Origin: Anaerolineales bacterium
GTDB taxonomy: Bacteria; Chloroflexota; Anaerolineae; Anaerolineales; UBA4823
DNA: 64,000 nt
Reading direction: 5' to 3'
Assembly: GCA_027494035.1 (NCBI GenBank)
Contig: JAOSJQ010000001.1
Span: 69,693-133,692 of the forward strand
Shown here: positions 9,253 to 27,266 of the stretch, piece after piece
Position numbering within the stretch: position 1 is the first letter of the stretch
Layout: every line of letters begins with the position of its first letter
The notes under the pieces: model-generated
Database searches by the model: none
Seen by the model: the letters and a program-made list of their open reading frames with translations, nothing else
Told to the model about the DNA's origin: nothing
Position numbers and translations under genes: made by a program

Positions 9253-9421
9253 TGTGTCACCTGTGTAGTCTGGATTTCGGGGTATTCTCAGCCCGAACCT
9301 GTGGTTATTATAACCAAATCTCGCGCATTGCCATTTTTCCCGACGAAACCGGCAATCCCCGGGAAGATGATCTGCAGTTCAACCAGGGCTTGTAATATGT
9401 AAAGTTTATTCTAGGAAAATA

Positions 9422-9450
9422 TTGTCATTCAGTCCTTATCCGGCTATAAT
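9422..9450 (+). promoter_or_regulatory. sigma70-like promoter candidate (TTGTCA, 17-nt spacer, TATAAT)
   Basis: -35 at 9422-9427 and -10 at 9445-9450, upstream of RBS AAAGGAG and the ATG at 9495. Confidence 0.5.
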
Positions 9451-9494
9451 GTAATCACTATATTCCCCGAAATGGACGAAAGGAGAAAAACCGA

Positions 9495-10594
9495 ATGGCA
9501 AGTGTTACTTTTGACCACATTACGAAGCGGTTCGGTGACGTTATTGCGGTCAACGATCTGAACATTGAGATCGCTGACAAAGAATTCCTGGTGCTGGTCG
9601 GACCGTCCGGCTGCGGCAAAACCACTGCGCTGCGCTGTCTGGCTGGGCTGGAAGACGTCAGTGAAGGTCGCATCCTGATCGCCGATCAGGTCGTCAACGA
9701 TATCGCGCCAAAGGACCGTGATATCGCCATGGTGTTCCAATCCTATGCTCTGTACCCCCATATGTCGGTCTTCGACAACATGGCTTTCGGTTTGAAGCTG
9801 CGCAAGACTCCCAAGGCTGAGATCAAGCGCCGCGTGGAAGAAGCTGCCGGAATCCTGGGCATCGAACACTTGCTGGATCGCAAACCGCGCCAGCTTTCGG
9901 GTGGACAGCGCCAGCGCGTTGCGGTGGGGCGGGCGATCGTGCGCGAGCCCAAGGTTTTTCTCTTCGATGAGCCGCTTTCGAACCTGGACGCCAAACTGCG
10001 CGTCGAAACCCGCGCCAACATCTCGAAGCTGCACCAGCAGCTCGAAACCACGTTCATTTATGTGACCCACGACCAGGTCGAAGCGATGACCATGGCTACC
10101 CGCATTGCAGTGATCAACAAAGGTCTGCTCCAGCAGATCGATACGCCGCAGGTGCTCTACGACCGCCCCGACAACCTGTTTGTAGCCGGGTTTATCGGTT
10201 CGCCGGCAATGAATTTCTTCCCCGCGCACATACGCAAAGATGGCGAAAACTTGTTCATCGATGGCGGCACGTTCAAAGTCAAAGTCCCTGAAACTCGCAA
10301 GGGCGCCTATATCAGTCACGTGGATAAGCCGGTTATTTTTGGCATCCGACCGGAGAACATCCACAACCCCGAATACGCGCCGCCCAACATCGACGCCCAA
10401 CCGGTTGAATGCATCGTCGATGTTACCGAACTGATGGGCAATGAGATCTTTGTCTATTTGAAGACCGGCGACAACCTCTTCGTCGCCCGCGTCGACCCGC
10501 GCTCACGCTACCACGTGGATGATAAAGTGCAGGTGTCGTTCAATATGAACAACATGCACGTGTTCGACCGCAGAGCGAGATCGCCATCCGCTGA
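9495..10594 (+). CDS. ABC sugar/glycerol-3-phosphate importer ATP-binding protein (MalK/UgpC/MsmX family), 3-prime end frameshifted as sequenced
   Basis: Walker A GPSGCGKTT, signature LSGGQRQRVAVGRA, Walker B LFDEPLSNLD, and a TOBE-like C-terminus. After MHVFD the canonical ending PQSEIAIR-stop (stop at 10592-10594) is in the -1 frame. The annotated ORF instead runs on to 10775. Confidence 0.88.
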
Positions 10595-10675: not shown

Positions 10676-11404
10676 ATGCCGGACGAACCCACCTACCATT
10701 TCGTTTTGCTGCGCCACGGTCAAAGCCAGTGGAATCAGGAGAATCGGTTCACCGGCTGGACCGATATCGCATTGACCGCCCAAGGGCGTCAGGAGACCCG
10801 CCAGGCAGCCCAGGCGCTAAAAGCGGCGGGCATCTCATTCGATTATGCCTGCACGTCCATTCTAAGGCGTGCGGTTGAATCCCTGGCGATTCTGGTTGAC
10901 GAAATGCACCTCCAGTCGCTGCCGATCGAACGCACCTGGCGGCTCAACGAGCGCCATTACGGAGGTTTGCAAGGGCTCAATAAAACCGAAACAGCCAATC
11001 GTCTGGGGTGGGCTTTGGTGAGATATTGGCGGCGCAGCTACGCAGGTCGCCCGCCAGCCCTTGAATTTGACGACCACCGCCATCCGCGCTTCGACCCATT
11101 ATATGCCGCGGTTCCACGCGCTTCGCTTCCGGCAACCGAGTCGCTCAAGGACACCGAACTGCGCGTGGCGCGCTATTGGAACACGACAATTCGTCCGCTG
11201 CTCCAGGGCGGTCTGAGGGTATTGATCCTGGCGCACGGCAACAGCTTGCGCGCCCTGGTGCGCTACCTGGAGCAAATCCCGCCGGCGCAGGCGCCCGAGT
11301 TGGACGTTCCCACCGCCATCCCGTTGATCTATCGCGCAAACGCCGATTTCACCCGCTATCAGCGCGTGGCTCTGGACAGGCTTGGCAGCGATCCGCACAC
11401 ATAA
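10676..11404 (+). CDS. gpmA: 2,3-bisphosphoglycerate-dependent phosphoglycerate mutase
   Basis: LLRHGQSQWN catalytic motif, followed by ERHYGGLQGLNK and AHGNSLRAL. Confidence 0.9.
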   Translation: MPDEPTYHFVLLRHGQSQWNQENRFTGWTDIALTAQGRQETRQAAQALKAAGISFDYACTSILRRAVESLAILVDEMHLQSLPIERTWRLNERHYGGLQGLNKTETANRLGWALVRYWRRSYAGRPPALEFDDHRHPRFDPLYAAVPRASLPATESLKDTELRVARYWNTTIRPLLQGGLRVLILAHGNSLRALVRYLEQIPPAQAPELDVPTAIPLIYRANADFTRYQRVALDRLGSDPHT

Positions 11405-12057
11405 GCGATCAACAAGCCCAGCCCGGCAGTGATGGCGCCGACATAAATAAAGATATCGCGCCAGAACCTTTCAGGAAACAACCGGATCAGGGTGTCACTC
11501 CATAAGAACATCCAGGTGCCCGGCTCGAAGAACACGTTGTGAAAAGCGACGAAAAAGACCCCGAAGCTTAGCAAAACGATGACGATCACCACGAGAATCA
11601 GCAACGCTGATACCAGACCGCCGCGCCCCAATCCTGCACGGTACGCCTGCCACCAACCACCCTGCCATGCCCAAACCCCGAGCAGCGCCAGCAAAACCAG
11701 CGAAGCCAACCAGACCTTCTGCGCGTTGGCAAGCGCGATTTTCACATCCACCATGTGCCGCAGCTCGCGCTCGTTGTAAACCGGACTGCCATCCTCGAAG
11801 CGCAAATCCCCCAAGAATTCGATCCCCTGATCGTTGTGCAAATATTCCAGGGCAATATTCGACCAATACAAACGTTCTTCCTTTGTAAACCCATAGCTAT
11901 CGGGCGGGAAACCGGGAGTGCTGTACTCGAAAGTCAGAAATACTGGAAACAATAACAACCGCACCGCAGTGAGCACCAGCGCGATCGGCACGAGCAGCGT
12001 GATCAACCAGCCAAGATATCGGAATACCTGCTTTTGCGATTGCAGTTGTTCGCTCAT
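11359..12057 (-). CDS. TIGR01906/DUF1461 family integral membrane protein
   Basis: Membrane protein with a C-terminal FHNVFFEPGTWMF...LIRLFPERFW segment typical of the family. Its ATG overlaps the stop of the upstream gene (ATGA). Confidence 0.7.
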   Translation of the reverse strand: MSEQLQSQKQVFRYLGWLITLLVPIALVLTAVRLLLFPVFLTFEYSTPGFPPDSYGFTKEERLYWSNIALEYLHNDQGIEFLGDLRFEDGSPVYNERELRHMVDVKIALANAQKVWLASLVLLALLGVWAWQGGWWQAYRAGLGRGGLVSALLILVVIVIVLLSFGVFFVAFHNVFFEPGTWMFLWSDTLIRLFPERFWRDIFIYVGAITAGLGLLIAYVCGSLPSLSRATR

Positions 12058-13679
12058 TGACCGGACCCTTTCGTTAACTCATCGATACCGCCATGTAGTA
12101 CATAGTTTAGCACCATTGAATTGGTGATCCATTCAATTGGCGCACGATCATCGGTATAGATCACCTGGCTTTGCGGGGTTGGCTGCAAATTGGCGACAAC
12201 CCGCTCCAAAGCGCGCAGCAAAAGCGGGTGCACATCCTGCCGCGAATAGAGATCCAGCAGATTTTGATAGAAATCTTCGATGCGGGTTGGACGCACCGTG
12301 GCGTAGATCATCGAGTTGAACGAATCCGGCACATCCATGACATACACGCTCGGGAACACCTGCTGAATGGTGCCCGCCAGCCCATCGATTAGGCGGCGGT
12401 CATCCGGCGAACGACCAACGTTCACTGCCAGAACGCCATCATCTGAAAGATGCGCGCGCACCAATTCGAAGAATTCCACCGTCGTGAGATGCCACGGGAT
12501 GTAAGGCGGACGATACGCGTCCACACCGATCACCGTGTACTGGCGCTTACTGTGCTCCAAACCCACCCGTCCGTCCTGAGCAATCGCATTAAGATTAGGC
12601 ATCTCCATGCCGAAGTATTCGCGCCCGACCTCAATGATCTGCGGATCGATCTCAAATCCATCGATTGGGATCAGACCATACACCTCGCTGGTCTGGCGGG
12701 CTACCGTGCCAGCTGCCAGCCCGATGATCGCCATGCTTTTCATGCGGGACGGGTCGAACGGCGCGGGGTTGAAAAACGGCGCCGCCAAGAACTGCTCCCA
12801 GGGACCGTGATAATCCAGCTCCGTCGGATGCCACATCGAGTGCACGCCCTGACCCTCATTGAGCCGCAGTAAACGAAAGCCGTCCTGTTCAAGCACTTCG
12901 ATGTAGTTGTAAGCCGATTCGCCCTCGTAAATCTGACCCGGTGTGTCCTTGATCGGGCGCTGGGTGAGCAGCCCACCCAGGACAAGCAGCAGGATGAACA
13001 TCCATGCCAGGCGCAGCGCCGCGCCCCACCCAAGATGCATCCACGCGCCGATCAGCGCGACCAGCAACAGCAGCTCGCTGAAGATGATGAAAGTCCACGT
13101 CGTTCCTACCAGGGGGATAAAAACCAGCACCGGCAGAAAAGTGCCGATAAACGAACCCAGGGTGGAGATGGCATAGATGCGCCCCGAAACCCGACCGGCT
13201 TCGTTCGGATCGCGGATTGCCAGCCGGATTGCGAACGGTGAAATCATTCCAAGCAACGTGACCGGGATGCTGAACAGGATCAAGACCGCCGTAAACGAAC
13301 CAAACAGCACGCCAATCTGAAGCTGGTCGAACGCGCCCGCCGCAAATCTCAGCACCGGGCGGGCGACTAGCGGCGCCAAGCCAGCCAGAAACGCGCCCCA
13401 GGCAAGGATGTGGTACATAGTGGCGGGGCGCGGGTCGCGGTCTGCCCAGGCGCCACCCGCAAAATAACCGACCGTCAGATAGATCAGGATCAGCCCAATG
13501 ATGCTCGCCCACACCAGGTTGCTGGTGCCAAAAACCGAACCCAGAAGGCGTGAAGCCGAAAATTCCAGCGCCAGGGTGGACATCCCGGCAAAGAAAACTG
13601 TCAGATACAGGTAACGCTTCATTAGCGTGGGGTATTGTATACCAGATTCAGAGATAATAAAAGACAGCAAACCGGGCAT
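12054..13679 (-). CDS. fused polytopic membrane domain / spermidine synthase-like aminopropyltransferase
   Basis: N-terminal multi-TM region plus a C-terminal SAM-fold region (IIGLAAGTVARQ, IDGFEIDPQIIEVGREYF, VIGVDAYRPPYIPWHLTTVEFF). The start could instead be the ATG at 13622. Confidence 0.8.
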   Translation of the reverse strand: MPGLLSFIISESGIQYPTLMKRYLYLTVFFAGMSTLALEFSASRLLGSVFGTSNLVWASIIGLILIYLTVGYFAGGAWADRDPRPATMYHILAWGAFLAGLAPLVARPVLRFAAGAFDQLQIGVLFGSFTAVLILFSIPVTLLGMISPFAIRLAIRDPNEAGRVSGRIYAISTLGSFIGTFLPVLVFIPLVGTTWTFIIFSELLLLVALIGAWMHLGWGAALRLAWMFILLLVLGGLLTQRPIKDTPGQIYEGESAYNYIEVLEQDGFRLLRLNEGQGVHSMWHPTELDYHGPWEQFLAAPFFNPAPFDPSRMKSMAIIGLAAGTVARQTSEVYGLIPIDGFEIDPQIIEVGREYFGMEMPNLNAIAQDGRVGLEHSKRQYTVIGVDAYRPPYIPWHLTTVEFFELVRAHLSDDGVLAVNVGRSPDDRRLIDGLAGTIQQVFPSVYVMDVPDSFNSMIYATVRPTRIEDFYQNLLDLYSRQDVHPLLLRALERVVANLQPTPQSQVIYTDDRAPIEWITNSMVLNYVLHGGIDELTKGSGQ

Positions 13680-13748: not shown

Positions 13749-16490
13749 ATGACCTCAGAAATGCTGACCGGCGCCAAAATCCGCCAGGATTTTATCGACT
13801 TCTTCACCGAACGCGGCCACACGTTCGTCCCTTCTTCCTCGCTTGTCCCTGGAGGCGACCACACGCTGCTTTTCACCAACGCCGGGATGGTGCAATTCAA
13901 AGATGTGTTTCTTGGCACGGATAAACGTCCCTATGTGCGCGCGGTCAATTCGCAGAAATGCATGCGCGTCGCCGGCAAGCACAACGATCTGGAAGACGTC
14001 GGGCAAGACGACGTCCACCACACTTTTTTCGAAATGCTCGGCAACTGGTCGTTCGGCGATTATTACAAAAAAGAAGCCATTGCCTGGGCTTGGCAGCTTT
14101 TGACCGAAGTCTGGGGGCTGCCAAAAGACAAGCTCTGGACAACCTGTTTCAAGGACGATCATGGCGACATCCCAACCGATGACGAAGCCTCTTCAGAGTG
14201 GTTGAAACAACCCGGCATCCATCCGGAACACGTGCTCTTCTTCGGGCGCAAGGATAATTTCTGGGAAATGGCTGAGACCGGACCCTGCGGTCCGTGCAGC
14301 GAAATCCATCTCGATCTGGGGATCGAACACTGCGACAAACAAGGGACGCCAGAGCACGTCTGCGGGGTCAATGGCGACTGCGCGCGTTTTCTGGAGTTGT
14401 GGAACCTGGTGTTCATTCAATATAACCGCTTGAGCCCCACCAGCCTGGAGCCCTTGCCGACCACCCATGTGGACACAGGTATGGGGTTGGACCGCATCGT
14501 CTCGGTGCTGCAAGGCGTCTACTCGAATTACAAGACCGATCTGCTGCTGCCGCTGATGCGCGCCGCCCAGCAGATGACCGGCGACAGCGACGCCCAAATG
14601 GAAACCAACCTGACCCCTTACCGGGTCATCGCCGATCATGCGCGGGCTGCGACGTTCCTGATCGCCGACGGCGTAGTGCCGGGGAACATCGGGCGCAACT
14701 ACGTGTGCCGCATGATCATCCGGCGCGCGGCGCGCTTCGGTTCGAAGCTGGGTCTCAACCGCCCCTTCCTCGCCCCAGTCGCTGAAAAGGTCATCGAGAT
14801 TTATGGCGATTTTTATCCTGAACTCAAACGCAACCGGGCGACCATCCTGAACAACCTGACCGCGGAAGAAGAGCGCTTTCAGCGCACCGTGGAAAGCGGC
14901 ATTGCCAAGCTGGAATCGCTGTTCAACCAGCTTGAGGCTGAAAACAAGCGCGTTTTGCCGGGCGAGCAGGCGTTCGATCTCTACGCCACTTACGGCTTGC
15001 CGCTTGAGATCACGCGCGACATTGCCCGCGAGCGCAGCCTGGATGTCAACGAAGCCGAGTTCAGCCAGGCGCTGGAAAAACACCGCCTCGCCTCGGGCGC
15101 GGGCGAAGCGTTTGGTCCCATGGGCGGCGAAGACGTGGATGTTTACCGCGACTTGATGAAGCAACTTATCGCGTCGGGCAAACTGCCGCCCGAGGGCGTG
15201 CAATACAACCCCTACGAACTGCTGGAAGTCGAAGCGCCGCTGCTGGCGCTCGTCGAGGCAGACCGATCCGTGCCAAGCGCGGAACCAGGCGCACAGGTGG
15301 AGGTGTTGCTGCCCGAGACGGGATTTTATGTCGAAGCGGGCGGACAGGTATCCGACACCGGCGTCATCGTCAACGCCGCTGGCGCCCCATGGGAGATCCA
15401 GGTGACCGGGATGCGCAAACCTGCCGCAGGCGTGATCGTTCACGTGGGCAAGGTGGTCTCCGGACAGCCTAAAGTCGGCGACATGGCGATCGCAACGGTC
15501 GATCGGCAGCGCCGCCGCGACATAATGCGCAACCACACCGCCACACACCTGCTCCATACTGAAATAAGGGCGGTTCTGGGCGATCATGCCCGTCAGGCAG
15601 GCTCGCTGGTCGCGCCAGATCACCTGCGTTTCGACTTTACTCATCCCCAGGCGCTCACGTTGGATCAAATCGAGCAGATCGAGGCGGACGTCAACCGCGA
15701 CATACTCGGCGATTATCCGCTGAACACTCAGGTTAAACCGCTTCAGCAAGCGATCAGCGAAGGCGCAACCGCGCTTTTTGGCGAGAAATATGGCGAAATC
15801 GTCCGGAACATCACCATCGGTCAGCCCGAAGTTTTTTCAAACGAGCTTTGCGGGGGGACACATGTGCAAGAGACGGGCGACATCGGGATTTTCCTCATCA
15901 CCAGCGAGAGCAGCGCGGCGGCTGGCGTTCGCCGCATCGAAGCGGTGACAGGGCGGGCTGCCTACGACCTTGTGCGCGATCGATTTCGAGTGTTAAAAAC
16001 CGCGGCGAGTTTATTGGACGTTTCGCCAGAGGAAGCGTCTGTGCGCGTGAGACAGATTCTCGATGCAGCCAGTGACCTGCAAAAGGAATTAACCGAGTTG
16101 CGTCGGCGCCAGGCTTTATTGACGTTCGAAGGGCTGCTGAATAAAACCGAGGACGTGAACGGCGTTCCGCTATTAGTATTAAATCTGCCGAACCTCGACG
16201 TGGATACCCTGCGCGTTTTGACCGATCGTTTTCGCCAGCGCTACTCGACCGGTGTGGTGGTGCTTGGTTCTACCGGGCAGGATGACCGTCCGATCGTCGT
16301 CGCGGCGTTGACCGATAATCTGCTGCCGCGCGGTCTCAACGCGGTTGATCTGGTGAGGTTTGTGAGCGGTTTCCTGGGCGGAGGCGGCGGCGGCAAGCCA
16401 AACCTGGCTCAGGCAGGCGGTAAAGAAGCCGCTCATTTACCGGAAGCGCTGCAAAAAGTAAAGAACTGGGTGGAGCAAAAGACCTCCTGA
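13749..16490 (+). CDS. alaS: alanine--tRNA ligase
   Basis: 913 aa. HTFFEMLGNWSFGDYYK, editing-domain HTATHLLH, and a C-terminal GGGGGGKPNLAQAGG. Confidence 0.97.
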   Translation: MTSEMLTGAKIRQDFIDFFTERGHTFVPSSSLVPGGDHTLLFTNAGMVQFKDVFLGTDKRPYVRAVNSQKCMRVAGKHNDLEDVGQDDVHHTFFEMLGNWSFGDYYKKEAIAWAWQLLTEVWGLPKDKLWTTCFKDDHGDIPTDDEASSEWLKQPGIHPEHVLFFGRKDNFWEMAETGPCGPCSEIHLDLGIEHCDKQGTPEHVCGVNGDCARFLELWNLVFIQYNRLSPTSLEPLPTTHVDTGMGLDRIVSVLQGVYSNYKTDLLLPLMRAAQQMTGDSDAQMETNLTPYRVIADHARAATFLIADGVVPGNIGRNYVCRMIIRRAARFGSKLGLNRPFLAPVAEKVIEIYGDFYPELKRNRATILNNLTAEEERFQRTVESGIAKLESLFNQLEAENKRVLPGEQAFDLYATYGLPLEITRDIARERSLDVNEAEFSQALEKHRLASGAGEAFGPMGGEDVDVYRDLMKQLIASGKLPPEGVQYNPYELLEVEAPLLALVEADRSVPSAEPGAQVEVLLPETGFYVEAGGQVSDTGVIVNAAGAPWEIQVTGMRKPAAGVIVHVGKVVSGQPKVGDMAIATVDRQRRRDIMRNHTATHLLHTEIRAVLGDHARQAGSLVAPDHLRFDFTHPQALTLDQIEQIEADVNRDILGDYPLNTQVKPLQQAISEGATALFGEKYGEIVRNITIGQPEVFSNELCGGTHVQETGDIGIFLITSESSAAAGVRRIEAVTGRAAYDLVRDRFRVLKTAASLLDVSPEEASVRVRQILDAASDLQKELTELRRRQALLTFEGLLNKTEDVNGVPLLVLNLPNLDVDTLRVLTDRFRQRYSTGVVVLGSTGQDDRPIVVAALTDNLLPRGLNAVDLVRFVSGFLGGGGGGKPNLAQAGGKEAAHLPEALQKVKNWVEQKTS

Positions 16491-18523
16491 TGCAGCGCAC
16501 CATCCTGCGCCCCTGGATGGCGCTGCCGGCGCTGCTGCTGGTTTGTGCACTCGCTTATGGGGTCACGATCCGCCAGCAGGGTTTCTATTGGGACGACTGG
16601 ACGATTGTCTGGTACATTCATTTTCTGGGCGCATCCAGCTTCAAAGCCGCGTTTGCCTCTGACCGCCCGCTCCTGGCGTGGATTTACCAGGTCACCACTC
16701 CCTTGCTGGGAGAATCGCCCTTCAACTGGCAGGCGTTTGCGGTAATCACCCGCTGGCTGGCGTGCGCCGCGTTGTGGTGGGCGCTCCGCGGTTTGTGGCC
16801 GCGCAATCCATTGCAAACCAGCGCAATTGCGATCCTGTTTGCGGTTTACCCCGGTTTCAAACAACAGCACATCGCGATCACTTACAGCAATGCATTTCTG
16901 GTGCTCGCGCTTTATCTGAGTTCGTGGGGGTTTATGATCTGGTCGCTGCGGCGGCTATCGCGGTTTTGGCTTCTCTATCTGATCTCATTGCTGCTAGCTA
17001 TCTATACGGTTTTTACCGCGGAGCATTTCTTCGGGCTGGAACTGCTTCGACCCGTGTTTCTCTGGATCGTTTTGAGCGAAACAGTCAGTCATTATGGGGA
17101 GCGTTTGAAAAAGACGCTCCTGCTTTGGCTGCCCTTCCTCGCGATCGACCTGGCATTTCTTGTCTGGCGCATCTCTAATCCGACCCCCAGAGCGCAAATC
17201 ACGCTCTTTGAGCGCCTCACCAGCGACCCTTCCGGCGCGGTGATTTCGCTCGCCGAAACTGTGCTTAGAGACATTCTGACTGCCAGCTTTTCCGCCTGGA
17301 GCCAGATATTTCGGCTCGATTGGCTGTCTGCCCAGCCGCCCGGCACAACGGTCAGGTTTGTGGTGATCGCCCTGGCGGCTGCCGCAGCAACTGGTCTGGC
17401 GCTGATATTTGCCGCCGGACACCGGCGCGATATTGACGCCAGAGCCGGGTTACGCTGGGCAATCCCAGCCATCGGTCTGGGATTGTTCAGCCTGCTGGCT
17501 GGCGGAATCCCGATCTGGCCCACCAATCTGCGCCTCGAGCTGTTCTTCCCCTGGGACCGCTTCACCCTGCCAATGATGTTCGGGGCTGCGTTGCTGCTGG
17601 CAGGGTTGATCGAACTGTTGAACTTTGCACCGCCAATAAATATGGCATTGGTGGTGGTATGCGCCGGTTTGGCAGCCGGGTTTCACTACCAAATCGCCCT
17701 CTCATTCCGGGCGGACTGGCTGAGCCAGCGCGATTTTTTCTGGCAGCTCGCCTGGCGCGTCCCGGGGTTAGAGCCGGGCACAATCCTGCTCACTTCAGAT
17801 TTGCCTTTCGAATACGATTGGGACAACTCGCTCACTGCGCCGCTCAACTGGACCTATGCGCCGCAAATGCAAGGGACCGAGCTGCCCTACTTGATGTACA
17901 ACGCCGAATCGCGCTTGAGCAGCGGTTTACCCCCGCTGGACAAAAACACCCGGATCCAGGAATACCTGCGCATCACGCCGTTCAGCGGATCGATCTCTCA
18001 GGCAGTTGTGGGTTTTTACCAACCCCCAGGGTCTTGCTTCAAGCTGATCGACCCGCAAATCGACCAGAACCTGCCGGAAAAACCGCGTTACTTCAAAGAA
18101 ATCTACTCCTTTTCCAGGCTCGATTTAGTCCACGCAGACGCCGCGCCGCCAGCTCAGCCGCCGCTTCAGTTTTTTGAACCTGAACCGCCCCCAAATTGGT
18201 GCTATTACTTTCAGAAAGCCGAACTGGCGCGCCAGACGGGCAATTGGAACGAAATTGTCGAACTGGGCGAGAAAGCCTTTGAGACCCGCAAAACTTTCAC
18301 CCGCAAAAACGTTTACGAGCTGCTTCCGTTTATCGAAGGATATGCCCGCAGCAACCAGTTCGATCGGGCATACGAAATGACCCGGCAGGGGTATCAAACC
18401 TGGGAGAAAATGGGAGCAACACTCTGCCTTCTTTGGGATAAAATCTCTGCGGATGCAAGCCTGGGCGCGGAAATCCAATCTGCCTCCAAAGAAATCCACG
18501 AGGAATTGAAATGCAGCGAATGA
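16490..18523 (+). CDS. polytopic membrane protein, GT-C-fold glycosyltransferase candidate, paralogue 1
   Basis: 677 aa. The ATG shares one base with the alaS TGA. Contains a GFYWDDW loop motif after TM1, many TM helices and a soluble Cys-containing C-terminal domain (NWCYYFQKAELA). Confidence 0.8.
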   Translation: MQRTILRPWMALPALLLVCALAYGVTIRQQGFYWDDWTIVWYIHFLGASSFKAAFASDRPLLAWIYQVTTPLLGESPFNWQAFAVITRWLACAALWWALRGLWPRNPLQTSAIAILFAVYPGFKQQHIAITYSNAFLVLALYLSSWGFMIWSLRRLSRFWLLYLISLLLAIYTVFTAEHFFGLELLRPVFLWIVLSETVSHYGERLKKTLLLWLPFLAIDLAFLVWRISNPTPRAQITLFERLTSDPSGAVISLAETVLRDILTASFSAWSQIFRLDWLSAQPPGTTVRFVVIALAAAAATGLALIFAAGHRRDIDARAGLRWAIPAIGLGLFSLLAGGIPIWPTNLRLELFFPWDRFTLPMMFGAALLLAGLIELLNFAPPINMALVVVCAGLAAGFHYQIALSFRADWLSQRDFFWQLAWRVPGLEPGTILLTSDLPFEYDWDNSLTAPLNWTYAPQMQGTELPYLMYNAESRLSSGLPPLDKNTRIQEYLRITPFSGSISQAVVGFYQPPGSCFKLIDPQIDQNLPEKPRYFKEIYSFSRLDLVHADAAPPAQPPLQFFEPEPPPNWCYYFQKAELARQTGNWNEIVELGEKAFETRKTFTRKNVYELLPFIEGYARSNQFDRAYEMTRQGYQTWEKMGATLCLLWDKISADASLGAEIQSASKEIHEELKCSE

Positions 18524-20574
18524 TCGATTCAAACCTGGTTCAGCGTATCCTTCGATCTCGATGGACGCTGGCATTCGGGCTGCTGGTGATCACTTCAATC
18601 ACCTATGGCGCATTGATTGTTTCAATGGGGCTCTATTGGGATGACTGGCCTTCACTTTGGTTTCTCCATTACGGAGGACCGCTGATTTTTCCCAAAGCAT
18701 TCGCAATTGACCGCCCGCTGCAAGGCTGGCTGTTTGTCCCCACCACGGCGATATTCGGTGAATCGTTGTTCGCCTGGCAAATCTTTGGAATTCTTGCGCG
18801 CTGGCTGAGCGGGCTGGCGCTCGGCTGGGCGCTGGGTTTGGTCTGGCAGACCCGCCGGTTTCAAGTGCTGGGGGTGGTGATCTTGTTCCTGGTCTATCCG
18901 GGTTTTTCTCAACAATGGATTGCCATCACTTATGGGCACCAGTTCCTGATCATGGCGCTGTTCCTGGTCTCCCTGGCGCTAATGATCCTGTCGATCCGCA
19001 AGCCCGCTCGATACTGGCTGCTCACCGGCGCCTCCTTGCTGACCGGGCTATTCAGTATGCTTGCGCTGGAATATTTTTTCGGGCTGGAACTGTTGCGCCC
19101 GGTTTTTCTCTGGCTGGTGTTGAGCGAGACGATCCCTGAATTGCGAGACCGGCTGAGGGAGACGGGGAAACGCTGGCTGCCGTACTTGCTGATGAACACC
19201 GGTTTTTTGATCTGTCGCCTCACGCGCCCCACGCCGCGCGGGGAGGTCACGTTTTTCGCTGACTTTGCCGCCAATCCAGGCGCTGCCCTCACAAATCTAG
19301 GGCGGACGATCGCTGAGGATCTGGTTAAATCCACCGTTCTGGCATGGAACCGTGCAATCGGATATCTCAAATTCACGGGCGTAAAACCAGAAGTGCTGTC
19401 ATTATATGTGGGAATTGGATTAGCGGTTGCGCTGGTGTCGATCTTGCTGCTCGCGCTGGCTCGATCCCACCAAAAAGCATTCGGCGATGACAGGGAGAAA
19501 AGCCGCTGGGGTCTCACCGCCCTGCTCGTCGGCGTATACGCGCTGCTTGTGGGTGGGTGGCCGATTTGGATGACCAATCTGCGCCTCGATTTAAGCATCC
19601 CCTGGGATCGTTTCACCGAGGCGATGATGCTGGGATCGTGTCTGGCGGTTATCGGCATGATCGATCTGCTGCTTTGGCGGTTTGATTGGCTGAAAATCAC
19701 CATCATTGCGGTTTTGGCTGGTCTGGCTGCCGGGGCGCAATTGAACTACGCCCTGCCATTCCGCCAAGAATGGCTTGACCAGCGGACATTTCTCTGGCAG
19801 CTCGCCTGGCGCATACCCGCGATCGAACCAGGCACCGCGCTGCTGACCTCCAACCTGCCTTTTTATTCTTCCACTGACAACTCGTTGTCCGCGGCGATAA
19901 ACTGGATGTATGCCCCCGAGTTTCAGTCGGGGCAGATGCCCTATATGATTTTCGATCTCAACGCCAGGCTTGAAGACAGTCTGCCCAGTCTGGAACCCGA
20001 TGTGCCATTGTTCGAAAATTACCGGGCTGTCGACTTCATCGGTAACACCTCCCAGACATTGGTCTTCTATTACAGCCCGCCCCGCTGCCTCAAGGTGATG
20101 GATCTTTATACCGACCGCCATTATCCGAATAAACCCGGTTCTGTGGTGCTGGCATTACCGCTCTCGCGGCTGGAACTGATCCAGCCTGGAGAGAAAGACG
20201 ATCCTCATATGCCCGCTTTTCTGGGTCCCGAGCCGAAACACAACTGGTGCTACTATTTCGAAAAAATCGACCTGGCGGTCCAGCTTGGGCACTGGGAAAA
20301 AGCCGCCAATCTCGCCGACCGTGCTCTGGAAATAAAATCGGCGCTTTCGAGGGATAACGCGCCCGAACTGATCCCGTTGATTTATGCCTATGCGCGCGCC
20401 GGCAGATATACCAAGGCGATGGAATTATCTCTGCAGGCTGGAAGCCTGTCGAAAAAGATGCACTATTACATATGCGATACCTGGTATTATCTTGGACAGC
20501 AAATCCAAGGCGATCCAGAGTTCACGGCAGCCCAGGCTGAGGTCAACCAGGAATTCGAATGCACACCGCCTTAA
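18511..20574 (+). CDS. polytopic membrane protein, GT-C-fold glycosyltransferase candidate, paralogue 2
   Basis: 687 aa. Overlaps the paralogue 1 stop. Shares GLYWDDW, EYFFGLELLRPVFLW, PIWMTNLRL, WQLAWRIP and NWCYYFEK with its neighbours. Confidence 0.8.
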   Translation: MQRMIDSNLVQRILRSRWTLAFGLLVITSITYGALIVSMGLYWDDWPSLWFLHYGGPLIFPKAFAIDRPLQGWLFVPTTAIFGESLFAWQIFGILARWLSGLALGWALGLVWQTRRFQVLGVVILFLVYPGFSQQWIAITYGHQFLIMALFLVSLALMILSIRKPARYWLLTGASLLTGLFSMLALEYFFGLELLRPVFLWLVLSETIPELRDRLRETGKRWLPYLLMNTGFLICRLTRPTPRGEVTFFADFAANPGAALTNLGRTIAEDLVKSTVLAWNRAIGYLKFTGVKPEVLSLYVGIGLAVALVSILLLALARSHQKAFGDDREKSRWGLTALLVGVYALLVGGWPIWMTNLRLDLSIPWDRFTEAMMLGSCLAVIGMIDLLLWRFDWLKITIIAVLAGLAAGAQLNYALPFRQEWLDQRTFLWQLAWRIPAIEPGTALLTSNLPFYSSTDNSLSAAINWMYAPEFQSGQMPYMIFDLNARLEDSLPSLEPDVPLFENYRAVDFIGNTSQTLVFYYSPPRCLKVMDLYTDRHYPNKPGSVVLALPLSRLELIQPGEKDDPHMPAFLGPEPKHNWCYYFEKIDLAVQLGHWEKAANLADRALEIKSALSRDNAPELIPLIYAYARAGRYTKAMELSLQAGSLSKKMHYYICDTWYYLGQQIQGDPEFTAAQAEVNQEFECTPP

Positions 20575-20578
20575 GGTC

Positions 20579-22645
20579 ATGACAAATCGGTTCCGGCTTT
20601 CCCGCGCTGGGCTCGTCGTCACTCCGCTGGCGCTCCTGCTGATCTGTTCGCTCGCCTATCTGCCGATGATCTACCGGCTTGGTTTTTATTGGGACGACTG
20701 GCCTTCGATCTGGTTCTTGCATTTCTGGGGCGGGCAGGGATTTCGAGAAGGGTTCGCCAGCGACCGCCCGCTGCTCGCCTGGGTCTTCATGCTCACTACG
20801 CCGCTTTTCGGGGAAACGCCCGTTTCCTGGCAAAACTTCAGCGTCTTCACCCGCTGGATCACGAGTGTAGCCTGGTGGTGGTCGCTGCGGGGCTTATGGT
20901 CAAATCAGCCGCGCGCCGTCTTTTGGGCAGCGGCGCTCTTTGCAGTGTTTCCAGGTTTCAGCCAGCAATACATCGCCGTCACCTACAGCAACGCTTACCT
21001 GGTGTACTTTCTCTTCATCCTATCAATCGGGGCGATGATCTGGGCGTACCGCGCGGCGCGTTGGTTCTACCCGCTTATGGGTGTGTCGTTATTTTTATCC
21101 TTATTTAGCATGTTGATCACCGAGTATTTTTATGGTCTCGAATTATTGCGCCCCTTTATCCTATGGATTTTAATCAGCCCCACGGAGGGGTCGTGGAAAT
21201 CCAGGGCGTACAAGGTGGTGCGGCGCTGGGCGCCGTACCTGATCCTGTTGATCCCGGTCCTGTTTTGGAAGGCGCTGATCAGTCCCAGCCCGCGCGCCGA
21301 GATCACGCTCTTCAATGATCTCTTGCGCAGTCCCTTAACCTCTACGATCAGCCTGGGACTCACAATCCTCGGCGATTTCTTCAAGGTAAATTTCCTGGCT
21401 TGGTTTGCGCCATTGAACCCGGGTTTTCTCAAGGATTTCGAAGCGGGCGTGCTCAGGCTGCTGATTGGCGCAGTCCTCGCCAGCCTGCTTGTTACCTTGC
21501 TTTTCTCGCTCTTTTTAACGCGCAAACCAGCCTCCGCGTCGGATTCGGGGAAGCGCCTCGCCCCGCCGGATTGGGCGCAGCAAGCAATTGGATTGGGCGT
21601 TTTAGCATTCCTGGTTTCTGGATGGACCATCTGGATCACCAACCTGCATTTCGAGCTTTATTTTCCGTATGACCGCTTTATGCTGATCACAATGCTTGGG
21701 ACTTCGCTGCTGGTCGCCGGGCTGGCGGGGGTGATCGAGAAACAAATCCCGCTGGGATCGATCCTGATCGCCTTGCTGGTGAGCGTCTCAGTTGGAATCC
21801 AGTTTCAGTATCGCCTTCAATATCGCCAGGAATGGCTCTCACAGAAAAACTTTTTCTGGCAGCTTGTCTGGCGCGCGCCAGGAATTCAGCCCGGTACAAC
21901 GGTGATGACTTCCGAGATTCCTTTCCAGTATTTCAGCGACAATTCCTTGACGGCGCCGCTGAACTGGATTTACGCCCCTGCAAACGTTTCCCGCGAGATG
22001 GACTACCTGTTGTTTGACATCGAAGCCCGCTTGAACAAGGATCTGCCAGCCATCCAGCCAGACCTGCCAATCCACATGCCATACCGGGCAGCCCGGTTCG
22101 AGGGGAACACTTCGCAAGCCATCGTCCTATTCTACGACCCGCCGCGCTGCTTGAAGGTGATGAACCCGGCAATCGATCGCTTCCTGCCGGTCAAGCCGCT
22201 CTACATTCGCGAAGCCGCTCCGCTGTCGCGGCTGGACCTGATCATACCCAATCCTGAAATGAAAGCTGCGCCTCCGGAACATATCTTTGGCAGCGAACCG
22301 GACCATCAATGGTGTTATTATTTCGAGAAGGCGGAGCTTTACGCCCAACAAGGGGAATGGGAAACCGCCGCGCAGATGGCAGACCAGGCGTTGAAGATCA
22401 ACAAACATTTCACCGAGAAGAATATCTCTGAGTTAATCCCTTTCATTATGGCTTACGCGCACACGGATCGTTGGAAAAAAGCGGTTGAATTAACCGGCGA
22501 AGCCTATCAAGTCTGGGACAAGACCCAGTACCCGCTCTGTGACGCCTGGCAAAGCATATACACGCACGCGCTTGAAAGCGAATCCAAATCCGGTGCGCTG
22601 GCGCAAGTCGAAGGGATTCTAGGCTGCAAGTTCCAGGATGAATAA
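20579..22645 (+). CDS. polytopic membrane protein, GT-C-fold glycosyltransferase candidate, paralogue 3
   Basis: 688 aa from the ATG at 20579 (MTNRFRLS), which lies 4 nt after the paralogue 2 stop. The longer track ORF from 20384 overlaps paralogue 2 and has no homology to the other N-termini. It shares the same conserved motifs. Confidence 0.8.
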   Translation: MTNRFRLSRAGLVVTPLALLLICSLAYLPMIYRLGFYWDDWPSIWFLHFWGGQGFREGFASDRPLLAWVFMLTTPLFGETPVSWQNFSVFTRWITSVAWWWSLRGLWSNQPRAVFWAAALFAVFPGFSQQYIAVTYSNAYLVYFLFILSIGAMIWAYRAARWFYPLMGVSLFLSLFSMLITEYFYGLELLRPFILWILISPTEGSWKSRAYKVVRRWAPYLILLIPVLFWKALISPSPRAEITLFNDLLRSPLTSTISLGLTILGDFFKVNFLAWFAPLNPGFLKDFEAGVLRLLIGAVLASLLVTLLFSLFLTRKPASASDSGKRLAPPDWAQQAIGLGVLAFLVSGWTIWITNLHFELYFPYDRFMLITMLGTSLLVAGLAGVIEKQIPLGSILIALLVSVSVGIQFQYRLQYRQEWLSQKNFFWQLVWRAPGIQPGTTVMTSEIPFQYFSDNSLTAPLNWIYAPANVSREMDYLLFDIEARLNKDLPAIQPDLPIHMPYRAARFEGNTSQAIVLFYDPPRCLKVMNPAIDRFLPVKPLYIREAAPLSRLDLIIPNPEMKAAPPEHIFGSEPDHQWCYYFEKAELYAQQGEWETAAQMADQALKINKHFTEKNISELIPFIMAYAHTDRWKKAVELTGEAYQVWDKTQYPLCDAWQSIYTHALESESKSGALAQVEGILGCKFQDE

Positions 22646-23599
22646 ATGGATCAAAATAAACTGCTCGATGGAATTTCAGTCGTTATCCCGGTCTACAACA
22701 GCGCAGAAATCCTTCCCGATCTGATCGCCCGGCTTGCGCCCGTCCTCGATAACATTACAGCCGCTTACGAAGCAATTCTGATTGAGGACGGCAGCCGTGA
22801 TGAGAGCTGGGCGGTGATCGAGCGCCTCAGCGAAGCAAACGTCTGGGTGCGCGGCATTCGTATGATGCGCAATTACGGGCAGCACAACGCTCTGTTGTGC
22901 GGGCTGCGCGCCGCCTGCTTCACTTGCACCGTCACGATCGATGACGATTTACAGCACCCGCCGGAGGAAATCCCGCTGCTTCTCGAAAAAATTGCGCAAG
23001 GGTATGATGTGGTCTACGGCACACCCGCAAAGCAGCAGCATGGATTGTGGCGCAACCTGGCGTCGTATATCACCCGCCTGGCGCTGCAGAGCACCATGGG
23101 GATCGAGAATGCCCGCAAAGTGAGCGCATTTCGCGCAATCCGAACCCAAGTTCGCCAGGCGTTCGCCCACTATCAAAGCCCTTTTGTCGTTCTGGATGTG
23201 CTGCTCGGCTGGGGTACCACCCGTTTTGCCTCGGCGACCACCCAACACCTGCCGCGCCAGAGCGGTAAGTCCAATTACACGTTCTCAAAGCTCATCCTGC
23301 ACGGCGTCAATATGCTGACCGGCTTCTCGGTCCTTCCGCTTCAAATGGCAAGTCTGATGGGTTTTGCTTCCGCCTTCTTTGGCATATTGATCTTCTTTTA
23401 TGTCATCGGGCGGTTTTTCATTGAAGGGGGCAGCGTTCCGGGCTTCCCATTCCTGGCTTCGATCATTGCGATCTTCTCGGGCGTGCAGTTATTTGCAATT
23501 GGAATCATTGGGGAGTATCTGGCGCGCATGCATTTCAGAATCATGGAACGACCTCCGTACGTCGTGCGCGAAGAAACAGGCGATTATCTAAATGACTGA
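22646..23599 (+). CDS. GT2 polyprenyl-phosphate glycosyltransferase (GtrB/ArnC/DPM1-like)
   Basis: Starts immediately after the paralogue 3 stop. VVIPVYNS, EDGSRD and TIDDDLQHPPEE (DXD region), followed by two C-terminal TM helices as in GtrB/ArnC. Confidence 0.85.
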   Translation: MDQNKLLDGISVVIPVYNSAEILPDLIARLAPVLDNITAAYEAILIEDGSRDESWAVIERLSEANVWVRGIRMMRNYGQHNALLCGLRAACFTCTVTIDDDLQHPPEEIPLLLEKIAQGYDVVYGTPAKQQHGLWRNLASYITRLALQSTMGIENARKVSAFRAIRTQVRQAFAHYQSPFVVLDVLLGWGTTRFASATTQHLPRQSGKSNYTFSKLILHGVNMLTGFSVLPLQMASLMGFASAFFGILIFFYVIGRFFIEGGSVPGFPFLASIIAIFSGVQLFAIGIIGEYLARMHFRIMERPPYVVREETGDYLND

Positions 23600-24342
23600 A
23601 TCTGAAGAAGCCCTGTCAGTTCCTGGAGTGGGACACTTCTTTTTTTAGCAGTCGGATCGCTCGGCTGAATAGCCCGCGCCTCACCCCAACCCTGCTCGAT
23701 CGAGTTTTCGAGTGGTGCCGGGACCAAACCATAGATTGTTTGTATTTCCTGGCTGATGCGGATGACCCGCAAACCGTCTGGCTGGCGCAGGATCACGGTT
23801 TTCGCCTGGTCGAGGTGCGTTACACGCTGGAACGCCGGCTCAACGATTGGGACCCCGAAACCCGCCCCCACGACGCCCCTGGGGTCGTTATCCGCGACGC
23901 CTTGCCCGAAGACATTCCCACGCTGCAGAAGATCGCCAGAACCAGCTATCTCGATTCGCGCTTTTATTTCGATTCCAATTTCAGCGAAGAGAAATGGGGC
24001 GCATATTATGCGACCTGGGTGAGCAGCAGTTGTCAGGGTGGCGTAGACCTTGCACTTGTAGCAATCAAGGATGGAACTGTGGTCGGATATATCACCGGCT
24101 TGGTTGACCGGCAAACGCGCGAAGGGATATACGAACTGACCGGAGTAGATGAATCGGCGCGCCGCAGCGGCGTCGGTCAAGAACTATTTCGCAGCGGGAT
24201 AGATTGGTATGTCCAACATCAAGTCAATTATCTCTGGGTAGCCACCCAGGGGCGCAATATCGCCACCCAGCGCATGATCCAGCGGCATGGTTTTCTTTCC
24301 AAATCCTGCCAGCTCTACTTTCATAAATGGTTCAAGGAGTAA
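23592..24342 (+). CDS. GNAT N-acetyltransferase, WecD (TDP-fucosamine acetyltransferase)-like, 5-prime frameshift as sequenced
   Basis: The ATG at 23592 overlaps the GT2 stop by 8 nt (ATGACTGA). After about 8 codons the WecD-like N-terminus (LEWDTSFFSSRIARL...CLYFLADADD) continues in the +1 frame. The GNAT core has RRSGVGQELF. Confidence 0.7.
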
Positions 24343-24365
24343 ACCGTGGAAGACCCCACGCGTGA

Positions 24366-25214
24366 ATGTTGCACCCACGGCTGGCGCAGACTATAATTGT
24401 AGCGGATTTTATTGAGTCAATGAAACAGCAAGAAGCAGTTGACTTTATTCGGGCAGAAATGACCAAAGCGCGCACGGTCAAACAGATCAGCGCTGACCTG
24501 AGCGTAAAACTGAACGCGCCGCAAGACGTGGTGGAGAAGTTCGTTAAGAAAATCGTCGATGAGACCGTAGCAACTGACTTTCTCACTTCCGCCGCGATCC
24601 ACGCCCCAGTTAGCCCCCCAGTAGTAGATCCAGCAACCTTTGAAGCTCTGCTTACGGCAGGTCAGGCGCACCCCGAAGCGAAAGTTCAGTCATCTTCTAA
24701 ACCAGACCTTCCGTCCGATGCGCACAAACCGCCTGCCAGCCGCGCTGAGGCGGCTGAGCCGCCGGCAGCCGGTCAGCCACCCGAATTCATTAAGTCCCCG
24801 AAGTATGACGATCCAGCAATTGAAAGCTTCGTCTTACAAGAGCTGGGAAAGCAGCAGAATCGGGACGACGTCGTGCTCCGCCTGTGTGAACTCACCGGAA
24901 TGTCCTGGTCTGAAGCTCAGAATGCCGTCGCACGTGTGCAAGCCCGCGGACGAAAGCGGACGACCGCAAACCAGAAAATGATCGTAGCTTCCCTCAGCTT
25001 GATCGCCCTGGTCGCCGGCGTTATCCTGTCAGCCGCAGCGCTCAGCCAGGCAGCCACCCTGCTGACCGTGGTCGGCGACCTGGCAGCGTCCACGCCCGAG
25101 CAGCTTCAACATCTCTATGGCAATTCTCACCAACTGTTCTGGGCATTTATTCTAGGGATTGCGCTGGGAATCGGGGGACTGGTTAGCCTGATCATCGCAA
25201 TTCGAAAAAAGTGA
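24366..25214 (+). CDS. hypothetical membrane protein (two small helical repeats, Pro-rich linker, two C-terminal TM helices)
   Basis: ORF with two C-terminal hydrophobic helices. The start may be the ATG at 24420. No known motif. Confidence 0.6.
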   Translation: MLHPRLAQTIIVADFIESMKQQEAVDFIRAEMTKARTVKQISADLSVKLNAPQDVVEKFVKKIVDETVATDFLTSAAIHAPVSPPVVDPATFEALLTAGQAHPEAKVQSSSKPDLPSDAHKPPASRAEAAEPPAAGQPPEFIKSPKYDDPAIESFVLQELGKQQNRDDVVLRLCELTGMSWSEAQNAVARVQARGRKRTTANQKMIVASLSLIALVAGVILSAAALSQAATLLTVVGDLAASTPEQLQHLYGNSHQLFWAFILGIALGIGGLVSLIIAIRKK

Positions 25215-25231
25215 AATAAGCCTGGCAGTTG

Positions 25232-26814
25232 ATGAAAACTTTTATTCTGCAGTTGGAGCCACACGATGACATCGTCTCGGTCCGGGATAAAATGGGCTGG
25301 GCAAAAAACAGCCGCGTCTTAATCGTCTGGCCCGAAAACGAGACCATTCTAAACCGCCGGCTCGATCTGGTGTTGCTGCAACGAATGAGCCAGACAGCAG
25401 GCGCGCAGATGGCGTTTGTCAGTAAAGACCGCGAGGTACAATACCATGCACCCCGCCTTGGCATTCCGGTGTTCAAATCCATTCGCCAGGCGCAAACCAA
25501 GCACTGGCGCCTCCCGTTCCGTTTCCGCAAGAATGCCGCCCCCGAACCGATTTCAGCGATCATCGACAGCGCCAATGTTGCTGAACGTCAAATCCCGGTA
25601 CGTCCGCAACTCACCTCGCGCACGTTGTCCCCGGTTGTCCGGCTGGCGTTCTTTGCCGCCGGTGTGCTTGCGTTTCTGGCGATCGCGGCAGTGCTTGCGC
25701 CTGGGGCAGAGGTAATCATCACCCCCGCACGGTGGTGCAAGACGTGCTGATCGAGGCTTACACCAGTCCGGAAATCAAAGCCATGCAGCTTTCCGGCGCG
25801 CTCCCATCCGAGGTTATAACCGTTGAAGTCGAGGGGCGCGCTTCACGCCCGGTCAGCGGTCAAATCAGGCTGCCCGATCAACCGGCGCGCGGCGCGGTGC
25901 TCTTCACCAACCTGACCGACCAATCAATCGAGATCTCCGCTGGTACGGTTGTTCAACCTGTGAACAGCTCGGCAGGCGAATTTAGCGCCATCCCGGCTTC
26001 GGGATCGCTGCGCTACGCCACCCAGAAGACCGTTATCCTGCCAGCCGGTCCAGGGCAAACCATCGAGGTCTCGGTACAGTGTCTCACGCCGGGCAAAAAA
26101 GGCAACCAGCCCGCCAACACGCTCGAAGCCATTGAAGGGTTTCTAGGAACCCAGGTGAGCGTGACCAATCCGCAGCCAATCGACGGGGGCGCCGATCGTC
26201 TGGAGCCGGCGCCCAACGAAAGAGACCGGCTCGAACTTGCACGTGAGTTGAACGATTCCCTGCGCCTGACTGCGCTCGAAGAAATGCAGAACGGGCTAGC
26301 GCCTGGCGATTTGCTGATCCCCTCCAGCCTGGTCGAAGGCGCGACGCTCGAGAAAACGTTCCAGCCCGAGGACAACCAGCCTGCCGATCAGCTCTCTTTG
26401 AACTGGCGGTTGAGCTATCAAGCCAGGGTGGTGCGCTTCGAAGAGCAACTAGCGCTGGCGCAGGCGGTGTTCGATGCGAACCTGCCACAGGGTTATACGC
26501 CCATGCCAGACACGTTGACGGTTGAAACGGTTGCTGAACCTCAACAACTCGATGAGCAATCGACGAGTTGGAAGTTGCACGCCGTTCGCCGCCTGACCGC
26601 TCAGATCAGCGATTCGCTGGCGCGCCAGACCGTCCTCGGTTTGCCGGTGCAGGAAGCGGCGCAGCGCATGCAATCCGCCCTCCAGCTCGAACAGACCCCT
26701 CAAATCCACTTAATACCCGATTGGTGGCCGCGCCTTCCGGTTTTGCCGTTCCGCATCCAGATCATCCAGCGCAGCCTTTACGATCTGGTCAGCGGGGAGC
26801 CGCCCGGGTTATGA
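25232..26814 (+). CDS. membrane-anchored hypothetical protein with weak baseplate J/gp47-like motif, frameshifted as sequenced
   Basis: ORFs 25229..25750 and 25732..26814 join as ...EVIITPAR-VVQDVLIEAY if one G is restored at 25731-25732. One TM helix sits near residues 140-165. PIDGGADRLEP...ERDRLELAR resembles the GG-D-E motif of baseplate J proteins. Confidence 0.6.
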
Positions 26815-27230: not shown

Positions 27231-27266
27231 TATCCCCGGAAGATGATCTCAAAATCAGATTGAGAA

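Follow-up and report, generated by a model that had tools for sequence, protein, structure and literature searches.

The described systems closest to the locus considered here are the Arn and Gtr systems. The Arn system (ArnB, ArnA, ArnC and ArnT), responsible for the aminoarabinosylation of lipid A, combines a 4-aminotransferase, an N-acyl transferase, a polyprenyl-phosphate glycosyltransferase and an external GT-C enzyme. Gtr systems have three components, the flippase GtrA, the GT2 enzyme GtrB and a serotype-specific GT-C enzyme, and in them the genes for a GtrB-like synthase and for one or more GT-C transferases, whose work begins once the sugar has been exported, are genetically coupled (PMC11127046). 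Related pairs are CsbB/YfhO, the PgfS/PgfM-type systems and the GT136 system, and further likenesses exist to the mycobacterial GT-C(A) arabinosyltransferases AftB, AftD and EmbC/A/B and to the TPR-bearing protein O-mannosyltransferases TMTC1-4 (GT105) and TMEM260 (GT117). The cell envelope of the Chloroflexota, and of the Anaerolineae especially, is poorly characterised. The DNA analysed here, called the window below, is a stretch of 64,000 nucleotides from an Anaerolineales bacterium (assembly GCA_027494035.1, contig JAOSJQ010000001.1, positions 69,693 to 133,692; all window coordinates are counted from its first letter). It carries three tandem genes for large membrane proteins, here termed A, B and C, followed directly by a gene for a GT2 enzyme. 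We consider it likely that A, B and C are catalytically competent transferases of the GT-C(A) fold class, working in an Arn/Gtr-style pathway of extracytoplasmic glycosylation, because of their fold models, the position of an Asp pair, their predicted topology and their linkage to the GT2 gene. Its probable role is to add an unusual amino sugar to the surface of the cell.

An earlier examination of the letters alone (the sequence-only reading) had described three tandem, translationally coupled paralogues, and this description stands. The listing of open reading frames (ORFs) contains all three genes on the plus strand: A at 16490–18523 (677 aa), B at 18511–20574 (687 aa) and C at 20579–22645 (688 aa). 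Pairwise identities by BLASTP are 41%, 42% and 43% over essentially the full length (E = 0), far beyond chance. The coupling that had been proposed is visible at the junctions: the TGA stop codon of the upstream alaS gene and the ATG of A have one base (16490) in common, the overlap between A and B measures 13 nt, or is a 4-nt ATGA should B begin at 18520, a gap of 4 nt separates B from C, and none separates C from the GT2 gene. The reading frame of C is open upstream to 20384, and the paralogue alignment begins at its Met66 (20579). The longer version was rejected, its first 65 residues overlapping B and matching no paralogue, and the start was placed at 20579 because similarity to A and B begins there.

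The motifs quoted in the sequence-only reading were searched for as regular expressions. G[FL]YWDDW, E[HY]F[FY]GLELLRP, [PT]IW.TNL...[WY]DRF, FR.[DE]WL.Q..F[FL]WQL.WR.P and DNSL[TS]A..NW.YAP each occur once per protein in A, B and C. The motif set is thus confirmed, with two small deviations in C, which has YR in place of FR and QWCYYF in place of NWCYYF. Conservation was assessed in an alignment of 49 family sequences, residue numbers being those of A. Forty-one columns are invariant, among them D35, D36, W37, D58, R59, P60, R187, R234, T345, D356 and R357, together with the four Cys residues already described as conserved (C516, C571, C646 and C675).

AlphaFold (AF2) models were confident for both A (predicted local distance difference test (pLDDT) 91.9, predicted template modelling score (pTM) 0.89) and C (pLDDT 92.1, pTM 0.90). 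They contain 11 transmembrane (TM) helices, in agreement with the more than ten claimed from the sequence, followed by a C-terminal domain of about 250 aa. This domain, at approximately residues 424–677 of A, opens with a small alpha/beta part, to which six TPR-like helices are joined; the earlier description of TPR-like helices was thus apt and agrees with weak TPR matches at about 580–650, whereas the size then given, about 200 aa, was too small. When the model of A was compared with the PDB by Foldseek, yeast and human STT3 and ArnT came first (E 1.6e-4 to 1e-3, probability 1.0), followed by AftD and DPY19. For C the top 13 matches were all GT-C(A) enzymes (STT3, ArnT, PglB and DPY19; best E = 6.4e-5), after which came AftD, Pmt4 and Pmt1/2, with the Pmt core aligning over 250–262 columns at a root-mean-square deviation (rmsd) of 5–6 Å. 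For both models the high-probability PDB matches over the membrane domain were GT-C(A) enzymes only, and the TPR-like tail separately matched TPR proteins over some 100–140 columns (probability 1.0). A Foldseek search of viral structures gave no match below 1e-3.

The suggestion of a GT-C enzyme had been made from an acidic pair just after the first TM helix, and the models bear it out at the level of fold. The class is marked by a conserved N-terminal module, in which seven TM helices are combined with two juxtamembrane (JM) helices in the first outward loop, and by an essential acidic residue that opens JM helix 1 on the non-cytoplasmic side; the models agree with both features. In A, D35 and D36 (codons at 16592–16597) start the first helix after TM1 (helix 35–45 by DSSP), and a further helix (50–54) also precedes the next long helices; the equivalent pairs are D44-D45 in B (18640–18645) and D39-D40 in C (20693–20698). 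All GT-C(A) enzymes have an essential Asp at the tip of JM1 (PMC12041299), and a catalytic role for the pair is predicted here from the models. The orientation of the protein was derived from charge statistics across the 49 sequences. Lys and Arg together reach 0.268 per residue in the predicted inner loops against 0.057 in the outer ones, and by the positive-inside rule both the loop with the Asp pair and the Cys-rich domain should thus lie outside the cytoplasm, as the sequence-only reading had supposed; a cytoplasmic pair, which that reading had named as a refutation, is not what is predicted. Of the 41 invariant columns, 31 fall in outward-facing segments and one in an inward-facing segment. 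Taken together, the models of A and C and the alignment predict that A, B and C carry both the GT-C(A) fold and its catalytic signature.

The same data bear on the notion that these proteins are not glycosyltransferases at all, being instead transporters, flippases or polymerases/ligases of the Wzy/WaaL type. They are polytopic, they lack a sequence-level family, and a few structures of the major facilitator superfamily (MFS) do appear in the Foldseek list. However, no Wzy, WaaL or SEDS structure is among the top matches, and the conserved charged residues cluster in the outward loops and not in the membrane core, so this explanation is highly improbable. The transporter version was rejected, since for the MFS matches to A and C the probability does not exceed about 0.5 and the TM-score is only about 0.1.

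Nor does it seem that only one of the three proteins is active. Every one of the 41 invariant positions, including the Asp pair, the DRP motif, D356/R357 and the four Cys, is retained in A, B and C, and therefore none looks like a pseudo-enzyme. A single catalytic paralogue with non-catalytic partners or regulators would fit the tight coupling of the three genes, and hetero-oligomeric GT-C enzymes exist, examples being Pmt1-Pmt2 and EmbA-EmbB; set against the complete retention of invariant residues, such an arrangement is very unlikely. The three paralogues diverge most in the outward loop 230–283 (24–37% identity), the TM8 region (17–31%) and the TPR-like tail (33–40%), and least in the motif region of extracytoplasmic loop 5 (EL5; 42–53%). 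This pattern is compatible with a common donor and common chemistry, the division of labour among A, B and C perhaps lying in their acceptors; the sequence-only reading had suggested three acceptor or linkage specificities.

The gene that follows C without a gap (22646–23599, plus strand) encodes a GT2 protein of 317 aa (Pfam Glycos_transf_2, 2e-23). It has full-length PDB matches to ArnC (1.5e-47), to GtrB sll0501 (2.5e-38) and to an archaeal dolichyl-phosphate mannose synthase (DPMS; 3.7e-17), ArnC being its best match in NCBIfam as well as in the PDB. The protein is therefore predicted to be a polyprenyl-phosphate glycosyltransferase of the ArnC/GtrB/PgfS type, the maker of a lipid-linked donor. 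The sequence-only reading had proposed a survey of the co-occurrence of the membrane proteins with GT2, and the link is strongly supported by the result. In 72 related loci from different species with enough downstream sequence, the GT2 gene adjoins a family gene in 68, directly after it in 65 and directly before it in 3; it lies on neither side in the remaining four, one of which is a fragmented assembly. This adjacency gives indirect support to a sugar donor linked to a lipid phosphate. The coupling of a GtrB-like synthase to at least one GT-C gene, and the variable number of GT-C genes per synthase, are features in common with the Gtr systems. The present locus differs from them in being chromosomal and vertically conserved within a block running from alaS to ruvX-mltG, and not borne by a phage or an O-antigen cluster.

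The identity of the sugar is suggested by the genes further downstream. A GNAT acetyltransferase of 200 aa, resembling WecD/RffC, is encoded at 23740–24342 on the plus strand (Pfam Acetyltransf_1, 1.2e-12). Its best NCBIfam match is to dTDP-4-amino-4,6-dideoxy-D-galactose acyltransferase (2.6e-20, below the cut-off), and its sole PDB match is to the TDP-fucosamine acetyltransferase WecD (2fs5; 3.6e-7); from these matches its predicted substrate for N-acetylation is a dTDP-4-amino-4,6-dideoxyhexose. The GNAT gene of relatives is followed by one for WecE, the dTDP-4-amino-4,6-dideoxyhexose transaminase, which in one of them (locus L018) scores 567 bits against an NCBIfam equivalog cut-off of 375. 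Accessory genes were counted in the 56 loci with at least 6 kb of downstream sequence: WecE is present in 41, the GNAT gene in 23 and a WbqC-like gene in 21, the last two never together and one or the other in 44. The order of family GT-C gene, GT2 gene, gene of N-acyl type and 4-aminotransferase gene is thus a conserved module. We assign no reaction to WbqC, a literature search for its function having given nothing useful.

Two further conserved genes lie between WecE and a gene labelled unk2 in L018 (15163–18083), with equivalents in 10–13 other loci. The product of the first has 460 aa and a weak C-terminal methyltransferase signal, and that of the second has 512 aa, with N-terminal membrane helices and a C-terminal part that resembles sulfatases and LtaS (by eye only). 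A search of the window for these two proteins and for an ArnT-like gene found none of them.

With a WecD-like GNAT at this locus and a bona fide WecE in most related loci, the donor may be an N-acyl-4-amino-4,6-dideoxyhexose linked to polyprenyl phosphate, of the type of 4-acetamido-4,6-dideoxygalactose (Fuc4NAc) or 4-acetamido-4,6-dideoxyglucose (Qui4NAc). This is a reasoned guess, which we hold at slightly short of an even chance. To our knowledge no donor has been described that joins an N-acylated 4-amino-4,6-dideoxyhexose to polyprenyl monophosphate; if the assignment is true, polyprenyl-P-Fuc4NAc or polyprenyl-P-Qui4NAc would be a new lipid-linked sugar. The set of activities recalls the Arn system, with WecE (in relatives) as the 4-aminotransferase, the WecD-like GNAT as the N-acyl transferase, an ArnC-like GT2 and an external enzyme that has ArnT among its best structural matches. 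It differs from Arn in the inferred sugar, a dTDP-derived 4-amino-4,6-dideoxyhexose here as against UDP-4-amino-4-deoxyarabinose (UDP-Ara4N) there, and in the C-terminal domain, which in this family is alpha/beta plus TPR-like with four Cys. Moreover, no equivalents of ArnD, ArnE or ArnF were found here, and lipid A cannot be assumed to be the acceptor.

Several observations weigh against an Arn/Gtr-style system of GT-C transferases. The resemblance of the membrane proteins to GT-C enzymes is one of fold and comes from predicted structures, and global TM-scores to GT-C enzymes are 0.26–0.35 with large rmsd, although modest values are to be expected because only the membrane module is held in common. 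Neither A, B and C nor the 49 aligned relatives could be connected to any known GT-C family through Pfam or NCBIfam: A gave no match, and B, C and the relatives gave only sub-threshold TPR matches, near 580–650 in B and C. A comparison by hhalign with an ArnT/PMT_2 profile of 39 sequences, built from a GT-C protein embedded in one related array (L001), was not significant (6% probability, E = 0.006); in this non-significant alignment GFYWDDW is paired with GYHWDE of ArnT/PMT_2 just after TM1. The GT2 protein matches the NCBIfam models for ArnC (6e-52) and PgfS (8e-43) far below both equivalog cut-offs. There is no WecE or WbqC gene in the 64-kb window, and the proposed donor is therefore drawn, for this locus, from the GNAT and from synteny in relatives. 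Finally, a hydrophobicity screen of window ORFs of at least 80 aa found no flippase of the GtrA, SMR or MATE type at the locus, a difference from the Gtr systems, though one may be encoded elsewhere in the genome. A DedA/VTT-domain gene lies directly upstream of the family gene only in Leptolinea (seven loci: L052, at 9319–9873, and six others), where its product might handle the lipid carrier and so stand in for a flippase.

The tests at sequence level do help to define what the proteins are. Searches of PDB sequences (phmmer) and with the family profile returned nothing in the membrane domain, and only weak matches to designed TPR/PPR proteins elsewhere. The hidden Markov models (HMMs) for ArnT, PMT_2 and PMT (PF13231 and PF02366; GT83 and GT39) matched neither A, B and C nor the 49 relatives at E <= 1. 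As regards STT3, PglB and AglB (GT66), which have a WWDxG motif in the C-terminal domain, A, B and C contain no WWD motif and have no Pfam or PDB sequence match. By these sequence comparisons the three proteins belong neither to GT39/GT83 nor to GT66, and they lack detectable homology to ArnT/PMT_2; like the GT-C components of Gtr systems they stand beside a synthase, but they fall in none of the sequence families tested. The earlier statement that the motif set and C-terminal domain belong to no characterised family therefore holds. Since the predicted fold is that of GT-C(A) and the sequence tests failed, we place the proteins in that fold class but regard them as a sequence family of their own, a new one. 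The class of mechanism is well known; what is new is the sequence family, with its distinctive C-terminal domain.

The pathway that we favour, extracytoplasmic transfer by A, B and C from a lipid-linked donor, can be set out in four steps. The co-transcribed ArnC/GtrB-like GT2 enzyme would move the sugar from its nucleotide to polyprenyl phosphate at the cytoplasmic face of the membrane. The lipid-linked monosaccharide would then be flipped outward by a component for which this locus offers no candidate. Each paralogue, using the Asp pair at the tip of JM helix 1 and probably helped by the invariant, outward-facing residues D58/R59, R187, R234, T345 and D356/R357, would pass the sugar to an extracytoplasmic acceptor. 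That acceptor would be chosen by the Cys-bearing C-terminal domain with its alpha/beta part and TPR-like helices.

The acceptor may be a protein, a glycopolymer or a lipid. One variant of the favoured pathway specifies it: A, B and C would be protein O-glycosyltransferases akin to PMT, TMTC and TMEM260, the TPR-like domain recruiting substrates and the three paralogues serving three classes of surface or membrane proteins. The helices at the C-terminus, with their weak TPR profile matches and their Foldseek matches to TPR proteins, are suggestive in this respect, and Pmt4 and Pmt1/2 are among the structural matches. TMTC1-4 and TMEM260 likewise combine a GT-C(A) module and an acidic first outward loop with non-cytoplasmic TPR-type helices, and their lumenal TPRs are thought to recruit protein domains (PMC11292533). 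However, the TPR-like part here amounts to about three helix pairs, below every Pfam threshold, STT3 and ArnT outscore the Pmt enzymes, no candidate substrate protein is conserved beside the family genes, and an acceptor that is a glycan or a lipid would fit the data just as well. The family also differs from TMTC and TMEM260 in that its TPR-like segment is short and follows an alpha/beta subdomain, in giving no hit with the Pfam models for TMTC and DUF2723, and in being bacterial and linked to an amino-sugar pathway. We regard protein O-glycosylation as possible but rather unlikely.

Just beyond the GNAT gene, at 24366–25214, the window encodes a 282-aa protein without a family, with a low-complexity middle rich in Pro and Ala and two C-terminal hydrophobic segments, which is conserved in few related loci. 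It is a possible glycosylation substrate.

A different picture is offered by the mycobacterial enzymes. The paralogues could build or branch a cell-wall polymer stepwise from polyprenyl-P-monosaccharides, each making a different linkage and possibly forming hetero-oligomers with the others. The embCAB operon of mycobacteria consists of tandem emb paralogues, and long-retained tandem paralogues in a fixed order recall it. AftD is a structural match, and AftB has the same layout, with 11 TM helices, a C-terminal extracytoplasmic (periplasmic) domain and, at the tip of JM1, a DD motif that includes the catalytic Asp (PMC12041299). Copy numbers speak on both sides. In 78 loci there is one family gene in 63, two in 6, three in 7, four in one and five in one, so that a single family gene with a GT2 gene is the common state. 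The five-copy array (L001; a Chloroflexota metagenome-assembled genome (MAG), GCA_042575325.1) has in addition a recognised ArnT/PMT_2 GT-C gene inserted, followed by GT2, GNAT and aminotransferase genes, which fits a polymer-building machine; the predominance of single-copy loci suggests instead that the ancestral system needs one transferase, for which side-chain or terminal decoration is a better fit than polymer assembly. Foldseek detected no carbohydrate-binding-module fold in the C-terminal domain of A or C, in which the family differs from the mycobacterial enzymes, as it does in the absence of sequence similarity and in the route to the donor, by GT2 and a nucleotide sugar here as against decaprenylphosphoryl arabinose (DPA) derived from phosphoribosyl pyrophosphate (PRPP) there. 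An Emb/Aft-like role is improbable on this balance. Equally improbable is the combined and more ambitious proposal of a new route, in which an N-acyl-4-amino-4,6-dideoxyhexose on polyprenyl phosphate would, in clades with expanded arrays like this triplet, feed linkage-specific, Emb/Aft-like paralogues that jointly build or branch, on the outer side of the membrane, an envelope glycopolymer specific to the Anaerolineae.

The inserted ArnT/PMT_2 GT-C gene of L001 lies at 14160–15725, after the third of the five paralogues, and suggests that different types of GT-C enzyme can share one donor locus.

The arrangement of three in the window is not a recent event. In four related loci (L002, L003, L011 and L056) the last three family genes find their best matches in A, B and C, in the same order; L003, L011 and L056 have three family genes each, whereas in L002 these are preceded by a fourth. 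Identities of the A-, B- and C-type orthologues are 51–59%, 47–63% and 54–64%, respectively, against about 40% to the other paralogues. The triplet is therefore an old series of duplications kept in one clade, and A, B and C, each with its predicted catalytic motif, have all been retained for a long time.

The family to which they belong is large. Protein A is 100% identical to the hypothetical protein B6D39_02150 of Anaerolineae bacterium UTCFX2, and relatives number more than 1,000; no Pfam domain occurs in any of them, and those that bear a name are nearly always called hypothetical. In an exhaustive HMM search of 1.84 billion cluster representatives, 3,133 clusters reached E <= 1e-3, and 1,633 of these also reached E <= 1e-30; the best 150 clusters are nearly all full-length, at about 660–745 aa, with a few shorter. 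Some 3,100 clusters at 50% identity without a Pfam or NCBIfam model would make this a candidate new glycosyltransferase family if activity is demonstrated. Among species-representative genomes there are at least 496 relatives, and the best 77 loci are all from Anaerolineae/Chloroflexota; judged from these 77, the family is confined to the Anaerolineae as far as seen. Two of them come from Leptolinea tardivitalis YMTK-2 and Leptolinea sp. HRD-7 (complete genome), cultured carriers with a single copy, which makes the predictions directly testable.

The genomic setting is that of a housekeeping region. In the window the glycosylation genes sit between alaS, the gene for alanyl-tRNA synthetase (13749–16490, plus strand), and ruvX-mltG (ruvX at about 26811–27230, YceG/MltG at 27267–28406), the whole block spanning 13749–28406. 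The order alaS, family gene, GT2 gene and then ruvX and mltG recurs in most loci of the Anaerolineales type, from which it seems that the glycosylation genes entered a housekeeping block long ago. An alaS gene is upstream of the family gene in 29 of the 56 long loci, and that of L001 carries the tRNA-synt_2c, tRNA_SAD and DHHA1 domains. Conservation in almost every sampled Anaerolineae locus, together with this setting, points to a core envelope decoration and not to an accessory serotype factor. A scan for promoters and terminators gave sites at or modestly above the expectation from shuffled sequence, and the only item of note was a weak terminator-like hairpin with a T-run found by consensus scan on the plus strand 3′ of the GT2 gene (23619–23645), possibly the end of an alaS-A-B-C-GT2 transcript. 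An Rfam scan of the window gave no match.

Other genes of the neighbourhood also travel with the block. Two overlapping genes at 25229–26814 encode a 173-aa protein without a family and one of 360 aa in which a Baseplate_J-like domain is found (6.8e-10); in most related loci the two lie directly upstream of ruvX, and they have no phage context. On the minus strand, divergent from alaS, the interval 11359–13679 holds genes for a fused membrane protein resembling MFS proteins and spermidine synthase (NF037959, 2.4e-56) and for a membrane protein of the Lit/TIGR01906 family, both of which are syntenic with the locus in most Anaerolineales relatives. Further off, recG (444–3065) is split into three frames (444–1982, 2083–2361 and 2361–3065), the first containing the wedge domain and the start of the helicase and the last, at 2361–3065, Helicase_C and the C-terminal domain of RecG; either the gene is a frameshifted pseudogene or the MAG contains assembly errors here. 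At 46001–50000 the GC content shifts sharply, from 0.471 at 46–48 kb to 0.630 at 48–50 kb against about 0.56 elsewhere, and this segment may be foreign or otherwise unusual DNA.

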